A stretch of 39,213 nt of DNA from a virus. Taxonomy: Duplodnaviria; Heunggongvirae; Uroviricota; Caudoviricetes. A model generated the notes under the pieces. It made no database searches. It had not been told where the DNA came from and saw only the letters and a list, made by a program, of their open reading frames with translations. Below are positions 2,912 through 39,213 of the stretch, in pieces. The stretch's first letter is position 1, and each line of letters opens with the position of its first letter. The position numbers and the translations under genes are program-made. Where the stretch lies: IMG/VR virus record IMGVR_UViG_2562617057_000005. The stretch is one strand, 5' to 3'.

Positions 2912-3298
2912 TTAATCCCGGCTGTCATCCGGTTCATCATCGTCTTCGAATAACTGCCCCTGCAACCGGCTGATTTCTTCCTTTCTTACGCGCTTCACCA
3001 GGTTGTAAATCCAGGGAACTGAAACCCTGAATCTGCGGGACAGTTCGTGGTGGTTACGTCCGTTAAACGCCTCATAGATTTCACGGTCACGCTGGCTTAT
3101 CTTCCATCTCATCCCCATAGGAAAATAAACGTTTTGCCCGCCCCAGACCTGCATCATGCGGTTCGCGACGGCCTGACCAATCTGGTCGGCAACTTCGGGC
3201 TCAATATCAATAATCTCGCGAACGGTCTCAGAGGTATGCTGTGCCAGCTCCACCAGGAGTTCCGGCCCTTTACTTCGAAACTGATTCAGGTCGCTCAT
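2912..3298 (-). CDS. mor: Mor/C-family transcriptional activator (middle operon regulator-like)
   Basis: 128 aa; the segment GGQNVYFP...EIYEAFNGRNHHELSRRFRVS...YNLVKRVRK parallels Mu Mor (GGGQVYIP...FNGRN...). GGGAG ribosome-binding site upstream. Confidence 0.8.
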   Translation of the reverse strand: MSDLNQFRSKGPELLVELAQHTSETVREIIDIEPEVADQIGQAVANRMMQVWGGQNVYFPMGMRWKISQRDREIYEAFNGRNHHELSRRFRVSVPWIYNLVKRVRKEEISRLQGQLFEDDDEPDDSRD

Positions 3299-5633: not shown

Positions 5634-5824
5634 TGCGAGTCCTCCCTGTCAGGGCGGGAGAATTCCATGACGGGCACGTCCGCCGAAAAATGCTGGCTGC
5701 AGTACGGACAGACCAGGGTGACGCGCACTGCAGGTACGTGGTACTTACCGGACATCACGGCGATGGCGCTGTGAAAACGCAGGGCTGTTATATCCCTCTC
5801 GCACTGAATACATTTAAATATCAT
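5630..5824 (-). CDS. putative zinc-ribbon protein (64 aa)
   Basis: Two CxxC pairs (CIQC and CPYC); overlaps neighbour by 4 nt. Confidence 0.5.
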   Translation of the reverse strand: MIFKCIQCERDITALRFHSAIAVMSGKYHVPAVRVTLVCPYCSQHFSADVPVMEFSRPDREDSQ

Positions 5825-5921
5825 GATTTAATTCTCCTCTGTTTCCGGCGTGCAGAAGCCCACGGCGCTGACGCCGGAATAAAAAAGAAAATGTTTTTAT
5901 TAAATAATTAACGTGGTGTGT

Positions 5922-6452
5922 TTACTGCACATCCTGCTCAAAAGGAATTATTGAAAAATCCTCAATGTCACTTTTTATGGTAATACCGGGAATATTTTTC
6001 ACGGCGTCCTTTTCATTCAGGATAGCGTCTTTATTTATTTCCTCTTTTACACGAATAAAGCGCTCAAGCCCCAGACGTCTCAGTAGTTCAATAACATTAT
6101 CCGCTCCGCGAATGCTGACTGACGGCGGGCGGTTTCGCCACTGCACCTCGCCGGTGGTGAGGTTAGCAAACTTCACCTTCCCGTTGCCGGTCAGTTCATC
6201 ACGGTGTGCCTCACACCATGTCTGGATACCGGACTGCAGTTCGGCCATGCGTTTTTTCAGGCTCTCGGTGAGCGGGGCATAACGTGCGGTGATGTCGCCA
6301 ATGGCGTCATTCATTTCTGTTTCAGCCCTGACCAGTTCACGTTGTGCGTCACCGAGCAGTCTGATTCCCTCAATGACCTCTTCACGAGTCCCCGGCACCC
6401 AGAGTGCTGCTGCGGCCTTGATACGTTTTGCCCCTTTTGTACTTTTTGCCAT
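5922..6452 (-). CDS. gam: Gam-like host-nuclease inhibitor / DNA-end-binding protein
   Basis: 176 aa; matches Mu Gam along its length as I remember it (AKRIK...AAA, ETEMNDAI, WCEA(N/H)RDELT, PPSVSIRG, GLxRFIR, GITxKSxIEDFSIIPFEQ). Confidence 0.9.
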   Translation of the reverse strand: MAKSTKGAKRIKAAAALWVPGTREEVIEGIRLLGDAQRELVRAETEMNDAIGDITARYAPLTESLKKRMAELQSGIQTWCEAHRDELTGNGKVKFANLTTGEVQWRNRPPSVSIRGADNVIELLRRLGLERFIRVKEEINKDAILNEKDAVKNIPGITIKSDIEDFSIIPFEQDVQ

Positions 6453-11325: not shown

Positions 11326-11514
11326 TTAGGCTGCCTGAGCCGTTGATTTCAGTCCCAGTTTCACGGCGATTTCATGGGATTTACCGTAACGGGCTTTGGT
11401 CTGCCCGTTGAGAACGCGGTATACCTCATTGCGGTTGTAGCCGTTCTCTTCTGCCCAGCGGGTGAAAGTGATCCCGCGCTGGCGGAAGAGAGCTTTGACT
11501 TGTTCTGCAGTCAT
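11326..11514 (-). CDS. Ner-like small DNA-binding regulator (Cro analogue)
   Basis: 62 aa, first gene of the leftward operon, divergent from the repressor; AAGGAG ribosome-binding site; pattern resembles the Mu Ner/Nlp family. Confidence 0.65.
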   Translation of the reverse strand: MTAEQVKALFRQRGITFTRWAEENGYNRNEVYRVLNGQTKARYGKSHEIAVKLGLKSTAQAA

Positions 11515-11614
11515 CGTTGTCTCCTTTGTTGATGCAATGATGTTTGCCTTATGTGTGATAGATTATGGTGCAGATTACCTCACCAGTCAACTTAAAGAGT
11601 GCAGAAAAACTTAC
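11515..11614. promoter_or_regulatory. divergent early/repressor control region (putative operators and promoters)
   Basis: 100-bp gap between the divergent ner-like and repressor genes; contains GTGCAGA twice (about 11568 and 11600). Confidence 0.45.
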
Positions 11615-11953
11615 ATGATCGGGTTACGTATTAAAGAAGAAAGAGAGCGTCTATCTCTTACACAGCAAGGGTTGGCTGATGCTATAGGTGTGGCAAAGAG
11701 AACTTTCATTGATTGGGAAAAAGATCGCACTTCTCCTACTGCAGTGCAGTTATCTGCACTATCAGAAATCGGTGTAGATGTTTTGTATGTAGTTACTGGG
11801 GTGCGGAATCAGCCTGTTGTTGCACCTTATGTGTCACAAGAAAAAAAAGAGTTAATGGATGCATTCGACGAAATGAGCCCCGAACAACGGAGGGCAATTC
11901 TTGAAGTTGGCAAAGTCTTCATTCAACCCAAACCAAGCAAACTCGCAGGCTGA
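11615..11953 (+). CDS. XRE-family HTH repressor (immunity repressor candidate)
   Basis: Internal ATG of track ORF 11462..11953. LSLTQQGLADAIGVAKRTFIDWEKDRTSP is a classic XRE/Cro-C1 HTH. Divergent from the early operon. Confidence 0.75.
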   Translation: MIGLRIKEERERLSLTQQGLADAIGVAKRTFIDWEKDRTSPTAVQLSALSEIGVDVLYVVTGVRNQPVVAPYVSQEKKELMDAFDEMSPEQRRAILEVGKVFIQPKPSKLAG

Positions 11954-12039
11954 TTCTGACCTGGACACAAAGGACAGGTGGTTGATCTGGACGCTTTCAG
12001 AAAGCGCCGTCAGTAGCATGGCAGAAATAGGCTGGCTTA

Positions 12040-12070
12040 CCGGAAAGCATTGCGCTTTCCGGTTCTGTTT
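12040..12070 (+). terminator. putative rho-independent terminator at the repressor/dam convergent junction
   Basis: Stem CCGGAAAGC / GCTTTCCGG with a 5-nt loop, followed by TTCTGTTT; ends at the dam stop codon. Confidence 0.5.
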
Positions 12071-12834
12071 CAGAAGTTGCAGATTACCAGTTCACGGCGC
12101 GGCGTGGGTTTACCTGCCAGACTGTAGTTTATATTCACCGTCTGTATATTCAGTTCAGTGAACACCTCTCGCATCTGTGGGATATCGTTCACCGAAATTA
12201 TCATCTTTCCTTTGATACACCGGGCCAGCTCTGCCAGTCGCGAGTAGTTCCCTTCAGGAAAATCCACACCATAGCCTTCCGTACCCAGGTACGGTGGGTC
12301 GCAGTAGAACAGCGTGTGCGGATGGTCATAACGCTCAATGCACTGTTGCCAGTCCATGTGTTCTATCACCGTTCTGGAAAGTCGCAGGTGTGCCGCTGAG
12401 AGCTCTTCCTCAATACGCAGCAGGTTGAAGCGTGGCGGGGATGTGGTGGAGGTGCCGAAACTATGCTCTGCCACCTTGCCACCAAACGCCTGCTTCTGGA
12501 GGTAGTAGAACCGTGCTGCACGCTGGATATCCGTCAGGGTTTCCTCCGGGGTGATCTGCAGCCATTTGTAGATCTGCCGGCTAACCAGCGCCCATTTGAA
12601 CTGGCGGACAAATTCCTCCAGGTGATGTTTTACCACCCGATACAGATTCACCAGCTCACCGTTGATGTCGTTAATGACTTCGATCCTGCCGGGTGACTTA
12701 AGAAAATAGAGCGCTGCTGCCCCACAGAACGGCTCCACATAACATTCATGCGCCGGAAACAGCGGCAGAATGTGTTTTGCCAGGCGGCGTTTGCCCCCAA
12801 TCCATGGAACGATGGGTAATGTCTGCATTTTCAT
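12070..12834 (-). CDS. DNA adenine methyltransferase, Dam family (orphan, phage-encoded)
   Basis: 254 aa; N-terminus WIGGKRRL...ECYVEPFCGAAALYF parallels E. coli Dam (WAGGK...ECLVEPFVGAGSVF); catalytic DPPY present. Confidence 0.9.
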   Translation of the reverse strand: MKMQTLPIVPWIGGKRRLAKHILPLFPAHECYVEPFCGAAALYFLKSPGRIEVINDINGELVNLYRVVKHHLEEFVRQFKWALVSRQIYKWLQITPEETLTDIQRAARFYYLQKQAFGGKVAEHSFGTSTTSPPRFNLLRIEEELSAAHLRLSRTVIEHMDWQQCIERYDHPHTLFYCDPPYLGTEGYGVDFPEGNYSRLAELARCIKGKMIISVNDIPQMREVFTELNIQTVNINYSLAGKPTPRRELVICNF

Positions 12835-12881
12835 AATCTGTAAGCCTTTTACAATTATTAAAAATATGGCAGGCTAGTCTG

Positions 12882-12893
12882 GTCTCGCGAGAC
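12882..12893. promoter_or_regulatory. perfect 12-bp palindrome GTCTCGCGAGAC in the dam / 89-aa divergent intergenic region
   Basis: Read directly from the sequence; flanked by partial AGTC/GACT symmetry; lies in the 234-bp gap between two divergent genes. Confidence 0.4.
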
Positions 12894-13068
12894 TGACTGA
12901 ACCCTGGTCGGCTCACAGCGCATTCCTGTGGGACGATGGCCAGCCCGGTGGGTCCGAAGCACCGGGCTGGTCGTTCTTTCATGATGCGGCAGGGATAGTG
13001 GGATTTCTGTTGAAGTGGTTTAAGAGTTTGTTGCATGCGGGTAAAGCACCGGAATACCGGAGGTGACC

Positions 13069-13338
13069 ATGAAGGTAACATCTGTCGAAGAGTACATTGA
13101 AATCTGGAGAAAGATGAAAAAACGTGAGGGCAGCCTGTTAGCCAGAGCTGCGCCCTCTATGATACCAGCAGTACTGGGGAATGCAGTAGTCACTCTGATT
13201 AGCCAGAACCAGGCAGTGACAACAGAAAGTATTATCAACTATCTGGAAGAGACAGCTCAGAAATCTCAGGGTACTTTACCTGATAGCTGGTACCAAACGG
13301 CACTGGATTTCCTGAAGGATTCAGTTTCGCAGCAATAA
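13069..13338 (+). CDS. hypothetical 89-aa protein
   Basis: ATG at 13069 with GGAGGTG 5 nt upstream (the track ORF begins at a GTG at 13063). Its 3' end overlaps the convergent 84-aa ORF by about 100 bp. Confidence 0.5.
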   Translation: MKVTSVEEYIEIWRKMKKREGSLLARAAPSMIPAVLGNAVVTLISQNQAVTTESIINYLEETAQKSQGTLPDSWYQTALDFLKDSVSQQ

Positions 13339-13489
13339 TTTCTGTTGCGAAAACCAGCAGGCACAGCCAGTCTTCATCTGCTGCGGTGTATGCAGCATCA
13401 GACATGCACCGCTTCAGTGCTTCCTCGTAAGGTTCATCTACATGGCGGATAAACTGCCATTTTCCGTTTTCTGCCTGTTTCCAGCTCAT
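13235..13489 (-). CDS. hypothetical 84-aa protein
   Basis: ATG with GAGGA 7 nt upstream, downstream of the P-loop gene; C-terminal 30 aa are low-complexity and overlap the + strand ORF. Confidence 0.4.
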   Translation of the reverse strand: MSWKQAENGKWQFIRHVDEPYEEALKRCMSDAAYTAADEDWLCLLVFATEIIAAKLNPSGNPVPFGTSYQVKYPEISELSLPDS

Positions 13490-13564
13490 GGGTATATCCT
13501 CATTCTGCTACCGATGGTAATGACGGGAAAACTTTACTGTTTTCACCTGTTGATGTGGGTGTCT

Positions 13565-13990: not shown

Positions 13991-14120
13991 ATCGTATTCT
14001 CCTCTGTGAATAATTCATCGTTTATCCTGCACATCCCGTATCCCCGGCTCTCTTAACGCGCTTTAAAATCCTTTGCGCCCTGTATTTGTGATGCTGTCTC
14101 CACCAGACAAGGAGACATTC

Positions 14121-37549: not shown

Positions 37550-38560
37550 TTAAATACTCGCCACATTATACCAGGTGCCATTTATATACTTTTGCACTGG
37601 CCTGTAATGAACGCCTGCAATATTATCGGCAGAGTTTTTTCCGGTATCCTGTACGTTAATCCCCGTCAGTACATAGCCTGACGGGCACTGAAAATTCCAT
37701 GTTTGCCAGTTGTTCACTCCATAATATTGCTGTGAACCAAGCCGGACATCTTTCACATATCTGGAATCAAAATTGCCATAGTTGCCGGGAATAACTTGCG
37801 AGCCGCAAAGCCAGTTCCCGTTATTATCCATGTACGCCTGACCATCGGTGCCATTGGCTGTCCTTGAGTTATTAATCATGTAGATGCCAAATTGCTTATT
37901 TCCCAGACCGCCAATCATAAATTTGCGGTCGGCATGGTCCTGACGGAGCAAAGCCTGAGCACCATCAGTGGATACCGCATTACGGCCCAGAATAACATTC
38001 TGGTCACGCATATGAATCCACATGCCGGTACTACTGTTAATTGCAAAACGGTTTGCAAATATATCCCCTGTAACATCAAGACCATGCCCCATGCTTATCC
38101 GGCCAGTTCTGAGATTAAGCGTAAAGGGGCGTAGTGGCCCTATATTACCATTTTCCCCTTCATTCTCTCGTGTAGGGATGATATGCAGGCATTCTTCAGA
38201 ACGACGAAAAATGGCACCAAAAGATGAATTAAATATCCTCAGTGCATTGACTGTCGATATTTTCACTTCACTGCTGAAAAGGGCTTCAACAAGAACAGAC
38301 AAAGCATTCCATTTAAGATTCATCAGGTCTTTAGGCCGGGTGCCAATGATGCGGTGTCTCCATTTGAAATATTCATTGCCGTTGTTGCCTGTTTCAAACC
38401 ACATGTAGGAATCGGTGTCTGCATCCGAATTATTTTTAAACCCAATCTTTGCCCAGTCAGTATTTCGAATCCAGGCAAGGATTGAGTCGTTTTCAAAAGT
38501 AAGTCCACCGGACAAGGTATCGCCTGTCTTTTGGACAGCGTTATCAGCCTTGTTTACCGT
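37550..38560 (-). CDS. alternative tail-fibre variable C-terminal segment (Mu S'v-like); no own start, expressed after inversion
   Basis: Open frame runs through the right gix-like site in the same phase as the fibre gene through the left site (both read GLQE across the core); ends [12 protein letters not shown]. Confidence 0.8.
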
Positions 38561-38582
38561 TTCCTGTAAACCAACGTTTTCG
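38561..38582. repeat. gix-like recombination site, right (TTCCTGTAAACCAACGTTTTCG)
   Basis: Inverted copy of the left site. Confidence 0.7.
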
Positions 38583-38631
38583 TCTTTATCCCTACCTATA
38601 CCAACTATGTATTTTTCACGAAACAAAGAGG

Positions 38632-39213
38632 ATGTTTTTTATGCAAATTGGCTATATTCGTGTGTCAACAAATGACCAGAACACGGATTTACAACGCAAT
38701 GCACTGAACTGCGCAGGATGTGAACTGATTTTTGAAGATAAAATCAGCGGAACGAAATCAGCCAGACCGGGATTGAAAAAACTGCTCAGAACGCTATCAG
38801 AAGGAGATACGCTGGTTGTCTGGAAGCTGGACAGACTGGGCAGAAGTATGAAACACCTGATCACGCTTATTGAGGAATTGCGGGAAAAAGGTGTTAATTT
38901 CCGTAGTCTGACGGACAGCATTGACACATCAACACCCATGGGGCGTTTCTTTTTTCACGTCATGGGGGCTTTAGCCGAAATGGAACGTGAATTAATTGTA
39001 GAGCGTACACTGGCCGGACTGGCAGCAGCACGTGCACAGGGGCGTATTGGTGGACGTCGTCCGAAACTGACAAAAGAGCAACATGAACAAATAGCAAGGC
39101 TGATCAAAAATGGCTATAGCAGGAAACAGTTGGCAATTATTTACGATATCGGTATATCGACGATTTATCGTTATCACCCTGTAGAGGAACTTCAAACTCA
39201 AGCTGAGTTGTAA
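38632..39213 (+). CDS. gin: serine recombinase DNA invertase, Gin/Pin/Cin/Hin family
   Basis: 193 aa, complete (stop at 39211-39213). MQIGYIRVSTNDQNTDLQRNAL...VVWKLDRLGRSMKHLI...GRFFFHVMGALAEMERELI..GRIGGRRPKLT matches Mu Gin closely as I remember it; catalytic Ser in YIRVST. Confidence 0.95.
   Translation: MFFMQIGYIRVSTNDQNTDLQRNALNCAGCELIFEDKISGTKSARPGLKKLLRTLSEGDTLVVWKLDRLGRSMKHLITLIEELREKGVNFRSLTDSIDTSTPMGRFFFHVMGALAEMERELIVERTLAGLAAARAQGRIGGRRPKLTKEQHEQIARLIKNGYSRKQLAIIYDIGISTIYRYHPVEELQTQAEL

Follow-up and report, generated by a model that had tools for sequence, protein, structure and literature searches.

Is a perfect palindrome that stands between two divergent prophage genes a binding site for a protein, or the trace of something else? 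The question is raised by a 39,213-nt stretch of DNA from a virus of the class Caudoviricetes (IMG/VR record IMGVR_UViG_2562617057_000005; the whole stretch is hereafter called the window), in which the 12-bp palindrome GTCTCGCGAGAC occupies positions 12882–12893 of a 234-bp intergenic gap (12835–13068) between dam, a DNA methyltransferase gene, and an open reading frame (ORF) of 89 amino acids. An earlier sequence-only reading had noted this palindrome, together with its partial flanking symmetry (AGTC at 12876–12879 and GACT at 12895–12898), and proposed it as a candidate operator for a dimeric regulator, and named the 89-amino-acid protein and the repressor for binding tests. We concur with its description of the coordinates and flanks, and also with its view that the site is probably not a Dam-methylation switch, since 12835–13068 contains no GATC site. 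The palindrome does belong to a selected element in the upstream control region of dam, but the operator interpretation went unsupported: the palindrome is, in our assessment, probably not a protein operator but the DNA from which the first stem-loop of a structured RNA of ~100 nt is read. The RNA family in question is best described as new, widespread, dam-linked and unannotated, and is absent from Rfam at threshold.

By itself, the palindrome is no more than chance would supply, as the window holds 12 perfect 12-bp palindromes compared with 11.5 ± 2.9 in dinucleotide shuffles, and approximately 0.07 would be expected by chance in the 234-bp gap. What makes it non-random is its conservation. 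A search pattern whose anchor excluded the palindrome gathered homologous copies from metagenomes, GTDB genomes and IMG/VR, and in 53 of 57 unique copies the palindrome proved to be exact (the variants are GTCTCGCGgGAC and GTCTCaCGAGAC). It sits in a nearly invariant block (~12859–12982) shared by relatives that differ at most dam third codon positions; within this block, the ~60 nt at 12859–12918 are 97–100% conserved, against a fall to 20–30% identity with the window at the adjoining dam third codon positions, and per-position conservation confines the variable positions to two short stretches that coincide with the loops of two hairpins, HP2 and HP3, described below. Homology with Escherichia coli prophages spans dam and continues up to ~13022, where it ends, and different prophages carry different cargo beyond that point. 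Thus, the 89-amino-acid ORF is variable cargo and not the partner of the palindrome. The element itself was counted in about a tenth of complete E. coli genomes (556 of 5426), including O25b:H4-ST131 strains, as well as in prophages of Klebsiella, Pantoea and Mixta; among the 25 complete E. coli genome records listed, no annotated feature lay under the match.

Folding of the + strand yields three hairpins (−56.2 kcal/mol; z = −3.2, as against −2.1 for the − strand), and the family-wide comparison adds a helix, P1, that closes the body. The palindrome is contained in HP1 (12881–12894), a 5'-terminal stem-loop of the form GGUCU-CGCG-AGACU that was assigned from the fold, from the occurrence of a hairpin throughout the family and from a bias towards G.U pairs. 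It is followed by the 5' strand of P1 (GACUGAAC, 12895–12902), which may alternatively pair with 12875–12879 as a lower stem of HP1; by a CCU junction (12903–12905; family consensus GCC-UU-GG in the alignments); by HP2 (12907–12937), with a basal stem GUCG/CGAU, a 7-bp stem CUCACAG/CUGUGGG and a variable 7-nt loop; and by HP3 (12938–12972), a 13-bp GC-rich, terminator-like hairpin with a perfect 11-nt inverted repeat, part of which (12951–12968 plus GGTCGTTCTT) was flagged by a terminator scan. The 3' strand of P1 and a U-rich tail (GUUCUUUCAU, 12973–12982, 97–100% conserved) form the predicted 3' end of the RNA. In many family members the apex of HP3 carries a conserved motif, GUGUU-N3-GCAC, in a hairpin that otherwise covaries (e.g., in loci L178, L179, L219 and L210), while the window has GGUGGGUCCGAAGCACC.

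The same arrangement recurs far from the enteric bacteria. In Vibrio phage VP882 and Burkholderia phage phi1026b the element lies on the strand opposite dam, in the gap that precedes the gene; the RNA is predicted to extend from ~20957 to 20855 on the minus strand of the VP882 record (EF057797) and from ~22141 to 22036 in phi1026b (AY453853). Locus L171 shows the same divergent arrangement with a dam homologue, together with a compensatory A-U to U-A change in HP2. Using a Dam alignment, 80 IMG/VR dam loci were fetched, and a covariance model was built from 28 diverse members; the model finds the element opposite dam in 66 of the 80 loci, and also in VP882, phi1026b, L171 and two Geobacter-type prophages. 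The dam homologues that adjoin the element in VP882, phi1026b, L171 and the IMG/VR loci are 54–66% identical. In the window, the family model places the element at 12875–12991 (+), opposite dam at 12070–12834 (−), and an nhmmer profile of 20 non-enteric members gives a single window match at 12902–12979 (+; E = 2.6e-6). The window copy accordingly combines several of the features that define the family, namely a dam-opposed position, a profile match, a −10 element with a palindromic 5' hairpin, and covarying HP2 and HP3. Members have been seen in Mu-like, N15-like and lambda-like backbones, and the only conserved neighbours are dam and, sometimes, com. One subclade has com-dam operons, in which a gene for a Com zinc-ribbon protein (PF10122, 5e-14) separates dam from the element, as at L195 (1343–1504), where com is directly upstream of dam and the RNA upstream of com; similar loci are L189, L191–L200, L212, L217, L232–L235, L241 and L246.

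Several observations accompany this survey. The two Geobacter-type prophages share the HP2 core and differ in HP1, HP3 and flanks; these copies (L018/L068 and L061) stand at the end of tail-gene clusters with no adjacent dam, and HP1 of L018 has the apex GAUC. A Geobacter-type pattern search returned one real new member (L171) plus noise, and looser DNA patterns in which the HP2 stem was left free gave only chance matches in GC-rich coding DNA. The dam homologues without the element (L201, L202 and L244, ~1280–1500) tend to have GATC-dense upstream regions, which suggests that in these loci the gene may instead be controlled through methylation. ARAGORN detected no tRNA or tmRNA gene in the window, and Rfam returned nothing relevant at the gathering threshold for the whole window or at E ≤ 10 for 12700–13200. 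A literature search for the palindrome, a BcepMu-type small RNA (sRNA), a dam-linked RNA or ctRNA_pGA1 in phages found no mention of them.

Covariation argues that the structure is maintained as RNA. In the enteric set, 97.6% of cells (individual base pairs in individual sequences) are paired, with double changes at 8 of 13 HP3 pairs and many G.U pairs, and an independent MAFFT alignment of the 28 diverse members shows compensatory changes at 14 of the 17 pairs called by RNAalifold. Across 70 distinct members aligned by the covariance model, 92.3% of cells are paired (71% in shuffles and at most 47% in slid controls) and 225 cells carry double changes (vs. 59), in an alignment that was itself fitted to the model. 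All seven modelled HP3 pairs show double changes across the family, and HP2 shows compensatory changes such as A-U to U-A and C-G to U-A. HP1 and P1, which the MAFFT alignments could not register, were analysed with anchored scripts. The order of the body is constant: a purine-rich strand, the GCC-UU-GG junction, HP2, HP3, and a pyrimidine-rich strand that pairs with the first as P1 (e.g., GGGGCAGC/GCUGCCUC, AGGGAGGC/GCCUUCUU and AAGCAGGGC/GCCCUGUUU). In the family-wide anchored test, cognate P1 strands pair at 7.04 of 8 positions and non-cognate strands at 5.77 of 8, a difference for which none of 5000 permutations gave as high a value; in L195, a U7 run comes after the P1 3' strand. HP2, HP3 and P1 are rich in G.U pairs, which fit the + strand only; therefore, selection appears to act on a + strand RNA.

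The evidence from HP1, the hairpin that contains the palindrome, is of the same kind. Among 32 unique lineages there are 27 different HP1 sequences, and every one forms a hairpin and follows a −10 element; examples are GCCTCGCGAGGC in VP882, GCCTACGTAGGC in phi1026b and GTCATCGATGAC in L181, as well as GTTCTCGAGAAC and ACTGATGGCCATCAGT. When each arm is read outward from the centre on the + strand, the first position that departs from Watson-Crick pairing is of the G.U type in 23 lineages, of the A.C type in 4 and of another kind in 2, and several HP1 helices run on past internal G.U pairs. A symmetric protein-binding site would treat G.U- and A.C-type mismatches alike; the 23:4 excess is therefore the signature of a + strand RNA helix rather than of a symmetric DNA site. 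It is because the hairpin is always kept, and because of this + strand G.U bias, that we read the palindrome as the 5' stem-loop of an RNA.

A promoter-like element precedes HP1 at nearly fixed spacing. In the window, a predicted extended −10 element, TGgCAGGCT (12867–12875, +), is 95–98% conserved in the enteric copies, and a −35-like hexamer, TTTACA (12848–12853, +; a 5/6 match to TTGACA), is suggested by sequence reading and the conservation profile 16 nt upstream; its counterpart in VP882, TTGCAA, stands in the same place with a 17-nt spacer. A hexamer of the form (T/C)A...T, mostly TAGGCT, is found in 32 of 32 lineages and is preceded by TGn in 17. Its variation follows the sigma-70 pattern, with positions 1, 2 and 6 kept and positions 3–5 variable, and it does not covary with the junction or any RNA segment. 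From the end of the hexamer to the perfect HP1 core there are 5–10 nt (6–9 nt in 29 of 32 lineages and ~6 nt in the window), and in 30 of 32 lineages the HP1 inverted repeat starts at −3 to +2 of the predicted +1, which in the window falls at 12881/12882, the first base of the palindrome. Upstream, a terminator-like 10-bp GC hairpin with T-rich flanks (12039–12063), probably a bidirectional terminator, lies between the 3' ends of a rightward repressor gene and dam; a rightward transcript reaching HP3 would therefore need its own promoter.

Other promoter assignments were considered. A consensus scan proposed TTTTCA-16-TACAAT (12828–12855, +), from which transcription would start at ~12862 and give a longer HP1; the second hexamer of this candidate is TGCAAT in most relatives, which argues against its serving as the main −10. 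A mirrored leftward −10 to the right of the palindrome was rejected on sequence reading, being only loose in the window clade (CAGGGT, one base out of register) and absent in VP882, L204 and L210. In Pantoea stewartii (L058, ~5690–6100), an IS630-type insertion at a TA between the −10 and HP1 splits the RNA from its promoter; the edge of homology there was entertained as a 5' boundary of the RNA and discarded, since it is the edge of the insertion.

Several points weigh against this interpretation and should be set beside it. Within the enteric clade HP1 hardly varies, and of its variants 7 are compatible with pairing and 6 are not. Self-complementarity extends across the central 4 nt of HP1 in 31 of 32 lineages and across the central 6 nt in 29 of them, compared with only 1 of 21 HP3 loops, and in several lineages the DNA dyad continues 4–6 bp upstream of the predicted +1 with a 1–2-nt offset, the AGTC/GACT of the window being part of this extension; neither the perfect central symmetry nor the upstream dyad is needed by a simple 5' hairpin. 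As for the promoter, the −10 of the window clade, CAGGCT, is a weak hexamer, and the consensus scan favoured 12828–12855. As for the fold, the minimum-free-energy structure of the 102-nt RNA alone misses HP1 and HP2, two central mismatches in the window P1 (GACUGAAC/GUUCUUUC) leave only 6 of 8 positions paired, and the tail after HP3, GUUCUUUC, has no clean U-run. The transcription start, the 3' end and the activity of the promoter are predictions throughout. With respect to function, no convincing RNA target was found within the prophage: full-length duplex energies were uninformative, and complementary 9–11-mers in the prophage occurred at chance level (~2 expected for 11-mers). Finally, in the prophages of E. 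coli A24 (L002, 3930–4050) and B7A (L003, 3950–4080), dam is reduced to a decayed remnant of its first 15–30 codons, and the block corresponding to ~12789–12985 is kept, with the RNA portion almost unchanged; this persistence of the RNA without dam weakens a purely dam-directed role.

What the RNA might do is best approached from the layout of the locus, and the scheme that follows, from expression and RNA ends to each functional step, is a proposal built on the conservation, + strand structure, promoter-like geometry and dam linkage described above. The extended −10 promoter, which faces away from the adjoining start codon and ribosome-binding site of dam, would drive a + strand unit whose transcript begins at ~12881/12882, at the palindrome itself, and hence with a blunt 5' hairpin. 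Blunt 5' hairpins protect bacterial RNAs from 5'-end-dependent decay, and HP1 may protect this RNA in the same way. The body would then comprise the P1 5' strand, HP2, HP3, and the P1 3' strand with its U-rich tail, ending near 12980 after ~100 nt. There are ~47 bp between the dam ATG and the palindrome, and a putative dam Shine-Dalgarno sequence read from the sequence, AAAAGG (12845–12850, −), overlaps the −35 of the RNA promoter; AAGCCTTTT, beside the dam start, is kept in many lineages. With so short a distance and the −35 lying over the dam ribosome-binding region, the dam promoter or leader must therefore overlap the RNA unit. The RNA gene could thus be a control device for the adjacent methylase, and control of dam is probably its function. 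A strong RNA promoter overlapping the space available for the dam promoter and leader would compete or interfere with the transcription of dam, in the manner of momP2 at Mu mom, and wherever upstream late genes read into dam, which the gene order of VP882, phi1026b and L171 allows, the RNA would be antisense to the dam leader.

It is a possible, though doubtful, alternative that antisense pairing is the whole of the matter, with the RNA being a cis-encoded countertranscript that is fully complementary to a long dam leader originating upstream of the RNA gene—in the manner of plasmid countertranscript RNAs or IS10 RNA-OUT—and HP1 being a pairing or stability element. The gene order in phi1026b, VP882 and L171 fits well, as dam there lies downstream of co-directional late genes with the RNA gene in the gap on the opposite strand, and the overlap of the dam promoter or leader with the RNA unit, within ~47 bp of the dam start, is equally congenial, as is the score of the phi1026b copy against the Rfam family ctRNA_pGA1 (44.4 bits for a gathering score of 45). 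Enteric prophages of the KP12 and L178 types, however, have RNA-strand genes to the right (holin, DUF2441) and no leftward operon, and a crude orientation test was mixed, with 22 loci co-directional, 15 opposite and 15 unclear, the result being ambiguous in GC-rich loci. In the window, the promoter scan scored no leftward promoter in 12500–13500. Moreover, the G.U pairs indicate selection on the + strand only, and the RNA persists where dam does not.

That a dimeric protein binds the palindrome over the RNA +1 and over the −35 or upstream part of a leftward dam promoter, so balancing the two, seems to us improbable. The perfect dyad lies in a promoter region and overlaps the predicted +1, and the near-universal symmetry of the HP1 centre, its rarity in HP3 loops and the extension of the dyad beyond +1 as AGTC/GACT are what an operator would lead one to expect; on sequence reading, a candidate dam −10, CATATT (12868 to 12863), would also put the palindrome over the dam −35. 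Against this, the palindrome is the sole copy in the 39,213-nt window, as the search for a second one that the sequence-only reading had recommended returned none at up to 2 mismatches, and it is unlike the Mor-type motif at the late promoter. The 27 different palindromes are accompanied by no regulator gene, the constant module being dam with or without com plus the RNA, and the 89-amino-acid ORF is neither conserved alongside nor matched in Pfam. Mismatches in the arms, too, are of the G.U type in a 23:4 excess.

If the palindrome is indeed an RNA stem-loop, its perfect centre still calls for an explanation, and the possibilities include RNA dimerisation, an additional DNA-level role at the overlapping promoters, and homogenisation of the arms by template switching. 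By predicted energy, the duplex dimer of HP1 (−25.5 kcal/mol) is far more stable than two hairpins (2 x −2.9 kcal/mol). One could therefore imagine the lineage-specific, self-complementary 5' hairpin as a dimerisation or self/non-self element that joins two Y-shaped bodies via a 12–16-bp duplex. Control of the methylase would then fall to the dimer rather than to simple antisense pairing; the dimer might bind Dam, for instance, or act at the back-to-back promoters as a switch that depends on concentration. We consider this unlikely, and know of no precedent for a phage regulatory RNA of this kind. The view that there is no RNA gene at all, and that the hairpins are terminators or insulators stopping repressor-operon read-through into the lysis genes with the palindrome as an accessory hairpin, can be set aside as highly implausible: HP3 and its T-rich run are terminator-like on the + strand, the repressor gene points at the lysis genes in BcepMu-like prophages and the element abuts the late promoter in L178-type prophages, but a terminator-like hairpin already follows the repressor gene with the − strand dam in between, the element converges on late genes in other phage types, and insulation would not account for the invariance of 60 nt upstream of HP3, for covariation in HP2 and P1 or for a promoter-like element at fixed spacing.

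The surroundings of the RNA gene are those of a transposable prophage. The window is BcepMu-like (Bcepmuvirus), and its dam region is 92% identical to that of Escherichia phage PhiKM. Leftward early genes (Ner-like, winged helix-turn-helix, DUF3102, transposase, GemA and Mor, the Mor homologue at 2912–3298) are followed by a rightward helix-turn-helix repressor gene (11462–11953, +), the hairpin at 12039–12063, dam on the − strand, the palindrome gap, variable cargo, and the holin and late genes. The product of dam (12070–12834, −) is a D12-class N6-adenine DNA methyltransferase (Pfam PF02086, MethyltransfD12, 1.7e-28). In the cargo, the program-called 89-amino-acid ORF (13069–13338, +; start ATG at 13069) overlaps an 84-amino-acid ORF on the opposite strand (13235–13489, −), and both are without a Pfam match; the region is variable cargo, and each ORF is only a putative gene. 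At 14053–14066 lies the motif TTAACGCGCTTTAA, which six related prophages keep ahead of the holin gene, ~45 bp upstream of a −10-like hexamer, GATGCT; a degenerate copy of the motif, given as TTAACGCG(C/G)TTTA(A/C), was recognised from conserved columns at 13007–13022 (+). Given the Mor homologue, both look like Mor-type late or middle promoter sites; in L178-type prophages, the motif is the holin promoter itself. The copy at 13007–13022 is probably an activator site for the next rightward promoter and would bound the RNA gene; its use as a leftward dam promoter was rejected, as its orientation matches that of the motif before holin. At its right end (37650–39213) the window is still phage, with a tail-fibre gene and an invertase-type recombinase ~85% identical to E. 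coli prophages, which suggests an invertible tail-fibre segment.

If it is expressed, this element is a widespread phage RNA left unannotated by current pipelines, and its carriers include the model quorum-sensing phage VP882 and phages of the Burkholderia pseudomallei group. Phage Dam methylases have effects on restriction evasion, on mismatch repair and on the expression of host genes, and can be harmful if deregulated. The rule that the 5' hairpin is perfectly palindromic, whatever its sequence, is in addition a clean structural puzzle.

Among catalogued families, the nearest is Rfam RF00236, ctRNA_pGA1, from the Corynebacterium plasmid pGA1. Its model shares the HP2, HP3 and tail skeleton (3 bp, an internal loop, 7 bp with a 7-nt loop, a 1-nt linker, a 14-bp GC hairpin and a U-rich tail), and ctRNA_pGA1, like the RNA proposed here, is small and is encoded on the strand opposite the 5' part of a neighbouring gene. 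The model is without HP1 and P1, however, and its context is a plasmid rep leader, whereas here it is a phage methylase gene in a transposable prophage. In a scan of 24 family loci, only phi1026b (L173, 2125–2203; 44.4 bits, E ~1e-5) and L188 (27 bits) match RF00236, both below the gathering score of 45; L219 and L224, close relatives of the phi1026b copy, show no match at E ≤ 5, and the window shows none at the gathering threshold or at E ≤ 10, which places it outside the family as modelled. Automated annotation of this RNA family will be erratic.

A second comparison concerns VP882, which makes an Hfq-binding sRNA, VpdS, that promotes phage replication (PMC12197685, PMC13250501) and is listed at ~50 nt (review; PMC12197685, PMC13250501). 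VP882 carries a member of the family, with which VpdS may or may not be identical.

Among systems that resemble the locus in design, the IS10 RNA-OUT/RNA-IN pair and similar cis-antisense pairs have two promoters that oppose each other where a potentially harmful gene begins, and one of these promoters makes a small stable stem-loop RNA. A compact pair of opposed promoters is common to both, here a predicted one; unlike RNA-OUT, the family RNA combines a palindromic 5' hairpin with a body built on a three-way junction, and persists without its partner gene. The dimerisation initiation site of HIV-1, in turn, is, like some other elements, a self-complementary hairpin loop, and it resembles HP1, by analogy only, in that the apex varies between lineages and stays palindromic; in the family, the loops would be 4–6 nt, and the bacterial RNA would have them right at its 5' end.

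A further parallel is the com-mom module of phage Mu, in which divergent, overlapping promoters, momP1 and momP2, are combined with the translational activator Com. The window has no com gene, the 47 bp that separate dam from the palindrome being free of ORFs, and it differs further in that the divergent transcript is a conserved structured RNA (predicted), with no GATC/OxyR module in the gap and no Mor/C-type site between dam and the RNA. What the two share is a phage DNA-modification gene under tight, layered control, with a divergent promoter overlapping its own; a Com homologue precedes dam in one subclade of the family, and the window is itself Mu-like and has a Mor homologue. A defined RNA partner would make the control of phage dam directly testable, and would represent a second solution beside the Mu com-mom paradigm.

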